From: Eledone cirrhosa
Lineage: Eukaryota
Assembly (NCBI GenBank): GCA_964016885.1
Contig: OZ024741.1
Span: 90,086,001 to 90,150,000 of the forward strand
Direction of reading: 5' to 3'
DNA length: 64,000 nucleotides
A program made the translations under genes and the position numbers. How positions within the stretch are numbered: the first letter of the stretch is position 1; each line of letters begins with the position of its first letter. The notes beneath the pieces were generated by a model, which worked only from the letters and a program-made list of their open reading frames with translations, made no database searches and was not told the origin of the DNA. Shown here piece after piece: positions 42,221-43,792 of the stretch.

Positions 42221-43792
42221 ATACATTATGAAGAGAGAAGGAACATTTAGATATAATTAGTAATAAAATGTATCATACCTAAACTGCTCCTAGATTCCTC
42301 GACTACGTAGTTTCGTGGCATAAACAAAAACAACACATCATAAAGATATAGCGTCCCTGCGAGGTCTGCCGACTTATCAAGAGGATACCTCATTTACTAG
42401 TCTCAAGAACGCGTCTACACGACGTGAGAAAGAATCCCAAAAGGCGGAGGGGGAGATAGTCACGCGATATAACGGTCGAGAAACAGAGCTAAGCCTCTTA
42501 TAACCCCGAAGAAAATACCACAGAGGCGGAGGGGGTATTCATATCGAAGCCGTAGAAGAGGTGGTGAAGGAGGCGAGAAGTATGAGTAATGGCAGCTTTC
42601 CAGCAGCCACCACACTTCAAAGATTACTCAACCAGAGGGAGTTATTAACAATATATTTAGAAACACACAGATACATGCGGGGACACACATATACATGAAT
42701 GCATCCACACCCAACCGTGAGTTAAGGGTGCCAACCTCACCGATGTTGCTCAATGAATGACTGGGACAGACCAATCCGGTTGAACTAGACTGAACCAGTA
42801 TCAGAGTTAAAAATACATTATGAAGAGAGAAGGAACATTTAGATATAATTAGTAATAAAATGTATCATACCTAAACTGCTCCTAGATTCCTCGACTACGT
42901 AGTTTCGTGGCATAAACAAAAACAATACATCATAAAGATATAGCGTCCCTGCGAGGTCTGCCGACTTATCAAGAGGATACCTCATTTTACTAGTCTCAAG
43001 AACGCGTCTACACGACGTGAGAAAGAATCCCAAAAGGCGGAGGGGGAGATAGTCACGCGATATAACGGTCGAGAAACAGAGCTAAGCCTCTTATAACCCC
43101 GAAGAAAATACCACAGAGGCGGAGGGGGTATTCATATCGAAGCCGTAGAAGAGGTGGTGAAGGAGGCGAGAAGTATGAGTAATGGTAGCTTTCCAGCAGC
43201 CACCACACTTCAAAGATTACTCAACCAGAGGGAGTTATTAACAATATATTTAGAAACACACAGATACATGCGGACACACACATATACATGAATGCATCCA
43301 CACCCAACCGTGAGTTAAGGGTGCCAACCTCACCGATGTTGCTCAATGAATGACTGGGACAGACCAATCCGGTTGAACTAGACTGAACCAGTATCAGAGT
43401 TAAAAATACATTATGAAGAGAGAAGACGTCGTGTAGACGCGTTCTTGAGACTAGTAAAATGAGGTATCCTCTTGATAAGTCGGCAGACCTCGCAGGGACT
43501 CTATATCTTTATGATGTATTGTTTTTGTTTATGCCACGAAACTACGTAGTCGAGGAATCTAGGAGCAGTTTAGGTATGATACATTTTATTACTAATTATA
43601 TCTAAATGTTCCTTCTCTCTTCATAATGTATTTTTAACTCTGATACTGGTTCAGTCTAGTTCAACCGGATTGGTCTGTCCCAGTCATTCATTGAGCAACA
43701 TCGGTGAGTTGGCACCCTTAACTCACGGTTGGGTGTGGATGCATTCATGTATATGTGTGTCCCCGCAAGTATCTGTGTGTTTCTAAATATAT
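42221..43792. repeat. 592/593-bp HHR-containing unit: two tandem copies plus a ~365-bp inverted arm; (TA)n both sides
   Basis: ATACATTATGAAGAGAGAAG at 42221, 42813, 43406; 43426-43792 is the reverse complement of about 42650-43018. Confidence 0.95.
43467..43556 (+). ncRNA. Type I HHR with U3-A8 variant core (copies 42296-42385 and 42888-42977, minus)
   Basis: TCCTC TTGATAA GT-c-GGCA...TGCC-AC GAAA CTACGTAG TC GAGGA. Confidence 0.8.

Follow-up and report, generated by a model that had tools for sequence, protein, structure and literature searches.

The question raised by positions 42220-43793 of the 64,000-nt stretch of DNA analysed here (the window) is what kind of element leaves, in animal DNA rich in microsatellites and retroelements, near-identical copies of a short non-coding sequence in both orientations, each with a hammerhead motif of the U3-A8 type. 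We consider it quite likely that the locus is a single young insertion of a very high-copy, non-coding and non-autonomous retroelement of the metazoan non-LTR retrozyme kind, mobilised by a Penelope-like element (PLE).

The locus consists of two head-to-tail units (c1 and c2), 21 bp of a third, and an inverted partial copy, c3 (Table 1). The whole units differ from each other at 5 positions (99.2% identity), and c3 differs at 3 from the reverse complement of 42650-43018; all three copies are mutually 99% identical. The first-pass annotation of this DNA had described a tandem/inverted unit of about 592 bp in three copies. Size and arrangement were borne out; as to number, there are indeed three hammerheads but only two whole units, c3 amounting to 62% of one. 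Since both outer ends of the locus are 3' ends on the hammerhead strand (minus in c1 and c2, plus in c3), its halves lie head-to-head. No microhomology was seen at the inversion junction, where the 21-bp piece stops, and no target-site duplication is discernible at the locus. The unit has a GC content of 0.44 and holds no ATG-initiated ORF of more than 48 aa (the longest are 38 and 48 aa). A fold-back artefact of assembly was considered as sole cause of the inversion and rejected: both ends are found again in public contigs, and the inverted copy departs from its mirror sequence at 3 positions.

Table 1. Features of the locus, in window coordinates. Cut sites, stems and the pseudoknot are predictions.
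Feature	Position	Strand	Remarks
Left flank, AT/AC microsatellite (target)	42121-42219	.	
Insertion end A	42220-42227	+	AATACATT read inward; 81 nt downstream of predicted cut site
Unit copy c1	42220-42811	-	592 bp; 3' end (hammerhead strand) abuts (AT)n
c1 hammerhead	42296-42385	-	U3 42380, A8 42375; predicted cut after 42301
Unit copy c2	42812-43404	-	593 bp; head-to-tail with c1
c2 hammerhead	42888-42977	-	U3 42972, A8 42967; predicted cut after 42893
21-bp piece of third direct unit	43405-43425	-	Stops at inversion junction
Inverted, 5'-truncated copy c3	43426-43793	+	368 bp; head-to-head with tandem part
Candidate pseudoknot	43460-43492	+	UGAGGU 43460-65 (5' flank of stem I) with ACCUCG 43487-92 (stem II internal loop)
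c3 hammerhead	43467-43556	+	Stem I 43467-71/43552-56; core UUGAUAA 43472-78
c3 hammerhead, further parts		+	U3 43472, A8 43477; GAAA 43538-41; predicted cut after C 43551
c3 stem II	43479-85/43532-37	+	Bulged C
G-U-rich hairpin prolonging stem II	43492-43528	+	Predicted fold
Palindromic stem III, 10 nt	43541-43550	+	3-bp hairpin +1.5 kcal/mol as monomer; 10-bp two-copy duplex -12.9
Insertion end B	43786-43793	-	AATATATT read inward; 242 nt downstream of predicted cut site
Right flank, (AT)n microsatellite (target)	43794-44163	.	

Each copy carries a type I hammerhead made up of a UUGAUAA core, stem I, GAAA, the palindrome ACUACGUAGU and a GUC cleavage site. These parts are as the first-pass annotation had listed them (TTGATAA with stem I TCCTC/GAGGA, GAAA, palindrome ACTACGTAGT and GUC) in c1, c2 and c3 alike. 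Stem I (UCCUC/GAGGA) has 5 bp, a G10.1-C11.1 pair lies within the 6-bp stem II, stem III has 3 bp (10 bp as a dimer), and the motif has its ends in stem I. Core positions 3-9 and 12-17, a Watson-Crick 3-8 pair and an NUH cut site are all present, in the form of UUGAUAA, GAAA, U3-A8 and GUC. Reading the core as C3 plus an insertion would leave a C-A mismatch and was rejected, as was chance as the explanation of the palindrome in stem III. A descriptor tuned to the motif, and in this sense post hoc, matched none of 20,000 dinucleotide shuffles of the unit; two looser descriptors gave 3 and 26 matches per 10,000 shuffles.

As had been anticipated for standard searches, Rfam does not find this family: the whole window gave 0 matches at gathering score, and among 37 matches to E 10 over 42000-44000 there was no hammerhead family. 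MIR841 and the other miRNA rows in that output were discarded as mere reflections of the inverted repeat and of AT runs. The canonical-core PLE hammerheads of the window were likewise missed by the whole-window scan. Animal hammerheads that combine a U3-A8 core with a long stem II can thus be abundant and yet escape Rfam scans. The U3-A8 combination itself is not new, having been published in 2011 for natural hammerheads and in 2014 for PLE hammerheads. In the available portions of these papers, Perreault et al. 2011 (PMC3088659) describe natural U3-A8 covariation and cite earlier activity in vitro, and Cervera and de la Pena 2014 (PMC4209133), the only paper retrieved with the term 'U3-A8', report it in the hammerheads of Cercyon-related PLEs of Schistosoma mansoni, with a dedicated descriptor and ~1,300 matches. 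The initial view of U3-A8 as a rare compensated variant that keeps activity is thus upheld for compensation and for cited activity, but the variant was already known from PLEs, and in such numbers.

Because they are 99% identical throughout, the three copies count once as evidence, and their agreement in the double change, from which selection had at first been argued, is inheritance. Fixation across the family is the better evidence. Twenty of the 23 public runs listed hold some of the unit, three of them more than half; the detailed picture comes from contigs of 4 of the 23 (X1, X4, X5 and X9) aligned to one unit. In X1, 1,323 contigs fall on one unit with a summed depth of 5e4-5e5 in all 30 bins. 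Since the longest single X1 contigs listed have depths of 5-24, this suggests thousands of unit copies, a hint that is not to be equated with true copy number. The family search proposed in the first-pass annotation therefore returned a very high-copy family, in which none of the 40 listed of 42 places varying at a frequency of at least 3% is position 3 or 8. Among the same 40 places, 42886-42927 and 42950-43043 are variant-free, and none falls within the 44 core and stem positions (P 0.04; runs pooled), or within 56 positions when the arms of the pseudoknot (see below) are included (P 0.016; runs pooled). A relative with C3-G8 did not turn up; diverged contigs do extend over the core (X1 records 6-8 and X4 record 15), but their letters there fell below the 3% threshold.

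These figures bear on whether the hammerhead might be a passenger or relic, the family having spread through PLE machinery from uncut transcripts or by tandem amplification at the DNA level, with U3-A8 as a founder allele for which no cleavage today would be required. The depletion of variants (P 0.04) is modest, and because the copies are young and near-identical the fixation of U3-A8 must partly reflect common descent; against decay, however, the double change is compensated while all other core bases, the three stems and the palindrome are intact, and one diverged X1 contig (depth 4.6) resembles the unit, with 17 differences, only over 42888-42987, that is, over the hammerhead. Hammerhead mutants were without effect on PLE insertion in vitro (Frangieh et al. 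2024, PMC11167929), and one of nine Xenopus retrozyme dimers tested was cleaved in vitro, eight remaining uncleaved (Li, Clavereau and Pollet, bioRxiv 10.64898/2026.07.22.740005); both results, as given in the available portions of these papers, would suit a relic, as would the allele sharing among c1, c2 and c3 described below, which suggests conversion or duplication after insertion. On balance we regard a relic as quite unlikely.

Predicted folding adds to the picture in several ways. Between A9 and G12 lie 59 nt, in which stem II is prolonged by a long extra hairpin. Family variants at 42949 and 42928 change, by inspection, G-U to A-U pairs in this extension; that the variants in stem II preserve or improve pairing is a further point against a relic. 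The internal loop of stem II probably pairs with the 5' flank of stem I as a pseudoknot: the modelled duplex has -7.3 kcal/mol, without loop penalty, against -2.4 for an alternative extension of stem I, which the majority allele at 42885 weakens (by inspection). The 6-bp complementarity is invariant, and without covariation, among the variant places listed (40 of 42). Contacts of the pseudoknot type have been predicted in ~40% of natural hammerheads (PMC3088659); as far as the available text goes, those hammerheads come from mostly bacterial or phage contexts, whereas the present one lies in an animal repeat, with a pseudoknot that is itself a prediction. Stem III is unstable as a hairpin and stable as a duplex of two copies, a contrast suggestive of activity as a dimer; dimer cleavage is reviewed in PMC6765202.

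The predicted MFE fold of the 111-nt motif (-26.4 kcal/mol) is not the active one (-25.3, a gap of 1.1), the G10.1-C11.1 pair has a probability of 0.16, and 120-nt windows centred on the hammerhead do no better than shuffles (z -0.96 and +0.33). The circular monomer gave a z of -5.3 on the hammerhead strand against -0.1 on the other (100 and 60 shuffles), and the unit minus its hammerhead -4.75 against +0.81 (25 shuffles each); the paired fraction of the predicted circle is barely raised, at 0.63 versus 0.60 in shuffles. As far as such models can tell, this difference between strands points to selection acting on the RNA structure of the unit along its length.

A non-coding unit of 592 nt that folds strongly and bears a ribozyme motif would also suit an autonomous viroid-like circular RNA, replicating from RNA to RNA and endogenised here. 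Near-identical pieces of the unit occur at a depth of 2-13 in X5 and X9, runs labelled as other organisms, but these may be DNA traces; because traces rather than relatives are possible, they were not counted as cross-species conservation. Ribozyme motif and folding signal are, moreover, confined to one strand, genomic copy number is very high, the ends are of PLE type, and exact 20-base patterns from the unit found 0 loci in metagenome contigs and 0 in viral contigs, so that we think a viroid-like origin very improbable. The one prokaryotic locus that matched an exact 20-base pattern (L001) has no hammerhead by inspection, and of the 4 metagenome loci matching a degenerate pattern left open at positions 3 and 8 (L002-L005) none has the rest of the motif.

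How the copies were inserted can be read from the ends of the locus. These are offset by 162 nt within the unit, close to the 165 nt or so first estimated. The two end octamers are the sole two such sites on the hammerhead strand of the unit; they agree at 7 of 8 letters, a post hoc comparison in which 102 of 170,820 position pairs in the unit do equally well. Among the 15 of 99 contig loose ends listed, those running into (AT)n lie at 42813, the place equivalent to end A (at least six X1 contigs), and, for end B, at 42651 (at least three X1 contigs and at least one X4) and 42646 (at least one X4 contig), and so coincide with both ends of the locus; some of the X1 loose ends may be the locus itself, because X1 may be the source of the window. 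We infer that ends A and B are two RT start sites.

Since all three copies cross the predicted cut site, with ends 81 and 242 nt downstream of it, the template must have spanned that site intact. On a cut monomer synthesis would have halted after 81 or ~243 nt; the RNA that was copied must accordingly have been either circular or a multimer left uncut. To this extent the circular or multimeric template proposed in the first-pass annotation stands, but the offset of the ends is by itself no proof of a circle, because it matches the PLE tail between two RT starts (PMC11167929, in its available portion). A single circle meets a further difficulty. At position 42944, the letter of c1 and c2 accounts for only 23 of 178,412 depth units, the majority letter being that of c3; at 42681-2 it is c2 that has the majority allele, and the other two copies agree in one of ~1%. 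A single monomeric circle free of errors would not give this distribution of alleles among c1, c2 and c3. Possible causes are a multimer of mixed units, the use of two RNA molecules, duplication or conversion at a later stage, and polishing of the assembly.

The arrangement itself is that of a PLE insertion: a partial tandem with an adjacent inverted, 5'-truncated copy, insertion into (TA)n, and 3' ends that are fixed and lie downstream of the hammerhead. The available text of Craig et al. 2021 (PMC8557442) describes partial tandem copies beside which lies an inverted, truncated one, along with a tail of 30-40 bp, a bias for (TA)n and non-autonomous multicopy derivatives; in that of PMC11167929 a PLE protein is shown to cleave AT-rich DNA on both strands and to extend each of them, and RT starts at two internal sites, the interval forming the tail. 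The present locus resembles such EN+ PLE insertions in its layout, its microsatellite target and its unequal ends, attributable to two internal starts downstream of the hammerhead, and non-autonomous derivatives are known among them (MRC1). It differs in that the unit encodes nothing and that the offset is 162 nt instead of 30-40 bp, the same logic with another length.

Might the unit then be no more than the pLTR that an autonomous PLE carries (3' UTR, hammerhead and start region), the locus being a 5'-truncated tandem/inverted insertion of that PLE with no independent small-RNA life? The layout is the standard one for PLEs (PMC8557442) and U3-A8 is known from PLE pLTRs (PMC4209133), and the X1 contig that resembles the unit over the hammerhead alone could be an autonomous relative. 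So could an X4 contig that, near 42871, departs from the unit ~20 nt past the cut site for 255 unlike letters, a possible lead to an autonomous partner. The unit has, however, no ORF remnant. An autonomous PLE at the locus was rejected, no ORF with RT and GIY-YIG having been found between pLTRs in or adjoining 42220-43793. Against the seven PLE-like translations of the window, the unit gave nothing better than E 0.8 by tblastn; to the other PLEs of the window it has no similarity beyond simple repeats, and no sequence in common with the pLTR of a partner was found within the window. Depth in the contigs is continuous across both end sites and the whole unit, and head-to-tail joints of whole units occur in 3 of the 4 runs (X1, X4 and X9), which also speaks against a mere pLTR; for X1 the depth stated beyond 20 unlike letters is 0, and short contigs could conceal joints into an ORF. 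Strand-specific folding of the whole unit points the same way.

The motif itself can be set beside the PLE pLTR hammerheads of PMC4209133, whose minimal motifs are weakly active in vitro and for which a circle model was proposed. Shared with these, as described in the available portion of that paper, are type I topology, U3-A8, a stem I of 4-5 bp, a long stem II, G10.1-C11.1, palindromic positions 15.2-16.2 and probable activity as a dimer. Distinct are the 59-nt stem II domain, the 10-nt palindrome as opposed to a minimal helix III, the lack of an adjoining RT-EN ORF at 42220-43793, and the lack of an additional nucleotide between A9 and G10.1, where PLE minimal hammerheads typically have one after A9. 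With this last difference added to the foregoing, the pLTR reading appears unlikely.

Judged by the features open to test, the unit belongs to the metazoan non-LTR retrozymes and bears the insertion marks of a PLE. It forms a head-to-tail row of two (c1 and c2), in both of which the type I hammerhead is complete, and it is non-coding, below 50% in GC, a few hundred bases long, part of a dispersed multi-copy family and self-paired as a predicted circle. Non-LTR retrozymes were defined, with units of 150-450 nt, by Cervera and de la Pena 2020 (PMC7229834), who demonstrated their circles in coral, mussel and axolotl and considered PLEs the probable movers. In the 2026 preprint (bioRxiv 10.64898/2026.07.22.740005) the units measure 51-972 bp, are non-coding and in tandem, and are related to pLTRs; by its own account it gave limited evidence on the life cycle and left aside the PLE link outside vertebrates. 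At 592 nt the present unit exceeds the former range and lies inside the latter. As these sources, in their available portions, describe metazoan retrozymes, it resembles them in its head-to-tail non-coding units with one type I hammerhead each, GC of 44%, weak palindromic helix III, high copy number, folded predicted circle and coexistence with PLEs. It is unlike them in its U3-A8 core, 5-bp stem I, head-to-head inversion and (TA)n target without a discernible target-site duplication, and in that a probable pseudoknot replaces the usual contact between loops 1 and 2; circles have been seen for the retrozymes of PMC7229834, whereas the 592-bp unit is known from genomic DNA and predicted folds. 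Less usual, then, are the long stem II with its probable pseudoknot and the two fixed starts 162 nt apart. Judged by titles and the starts of abstracts, none of the octopus and cephalopod papers listed deals with a cephalopod retrozyme, and a 2026 paper on Octopus vulgaris repeats has 0 occurrences of 'hammerhead' or 'ribozyme'; variants of this sort, or families from molluscs, may be described in Lunse et al. (PMC5785218) or in the supplement to PMC7229834.

A cycle for such a retrozyme would begin with transcription of a tandem locus on the hammerhead strand, the strand to which the specificity of folding points, giving a highly folded multimeric RNA. The U3-A8 hammerhead would cut this RNA after GUC into 592-nt monomers, helped by pairing between two palindromic stems III and probably aided by the pseudoknot between loop II and the stem I flank; by analogy, we think cleavage after GUC probable. 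A host ligase may close the monomers into circles; that circles of the 592-nt monomer would be abundant is more questionable, its chances being in our estimate somewhat short of even. The GIY-YIG endonuclease of a PLE, a putative enzyme in this setting, would nick both (TA)n strands, and RT would start internally at one of two fixed positions, which lie 81 and ~243 nt past the cut site and have an 8-nt motif in common. Synthesis would pass the cut site and exceed unit length, on a circle or an uncut multimer, and the two primed strands would join head-to-head to leave tandem and inverted copies, a structure that is observed and for which this route is conjectural.

In its strongest form, the account would have a recently active retrozyme of thousands of copies in a probable octopod, whose fixed U3-A8 hammerhead is rescued by a long, pseudoknot-bearing stem II, and whose 592-nt circle accumulates and is copied by a PLE RT running round it from two motif-defined starts 162 nt apart. 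The combination as a whole is doubtful, and we advance it tentatively. Were it true, the insertions would be direct genomic footprints of a PLE-driven retrozyme cycle that has so far only been proposed, and would define an RNA motif recognised by the PLE RT. Mobilisation of animal retrozymes by PLEs, and the template used, have been proposed and little tested; an abundant young non-coding family that has head-to-head inversions, targets (TA)n and ends at two fixed sites is well suited to the search for the partner PLE and the start-site motif, and to telling circle from multimer.

Two observations concern the unit upstream of its hammerhead. The 58 nt at 42986-43043 have no variant at a frequency of 3% or more among the 40 of 42 places listed, and may from this pattern be a second functional element, such as a promoter or protein-binding site. 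An X4 contig near 43012 diverges upstream of the hammerhead yet keeps the 5' arm of the pseudoknot.

Canonical CUGANGA hammerheads occur elsewhere in the window, at 28768, 30197, 34022, 37117-39709, 40824 and 51177 and, by inspection, at 31464. Several of them sit head-to-head between (AT)n, like the locus at 42220-43793, and because these canonical-core elements repeat its layout, the tandem/inverted architecture is generic in the window and not tied to U3-A8. One of these is an array at 36716-40051 of 527-bp units, tandem (four minus-strand hammerheads) and inverted (two on the plus strand), between (AT)n; its cores are canonical CUGAUGA of minimal type, and both of its strands give strong folds (z -13 and -7.6), partly owing to internal AT repeats. 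It is probably a second retrozyme-like family or a pLTR array. Head-to-head inverted remnants at (AT)n lie at 28218-29015, 31249-31569 and 50723-51331, with CUGAUGA cores at 28768, 31464 and 51177, respectively, at 33447-33875, where a core-like motif has G5 changed in both arms, and at 25250-25640, in which no core was noted. Three 3' ends of one PLE-type family with the core CUGAAGA lie at 45968-46868, 61748-62650 and 63354-63956; in one copy (46171, minus) position 3 alone has gone from C to U while G8 is unchanged, which makes it an uncompensated counterpart of U3-A8.

Coding remnants are scattered among these elements. The ORF at 32137-33501 (minus), of 454 aa, has its best match, at 64%, in an Octopus vulgaris protein (only longer proteins were searched) and is, by its motifs, what we take to be a PLE-type fragment reaching from RT to endonuclease; the match makes an octopod source of the window likely. 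Broken ORFs at 35696-36719 (plus) and 59472-61013 (minus) presumably correspond to RT/endonuclease pieces of PLEs of other clades, which they resemble; neither has a Pfam match. Among the 10 window translations compared with Pfam, RVT_1 was found in 2 (one of them weak) and GIY-YIG in none. A 367-aa fragment of a non-LTR-type reverse transcriptase is encoded at 18838-19941 (plus; RVT_1, E 1.6e-20). The first quarter of the window (1-16318) is a 14-bp satellite of ~1,173 copies with 89% matches, and a 268-bp repeat at 57105-57718 is built of telomere-like words of the CTAACC type.
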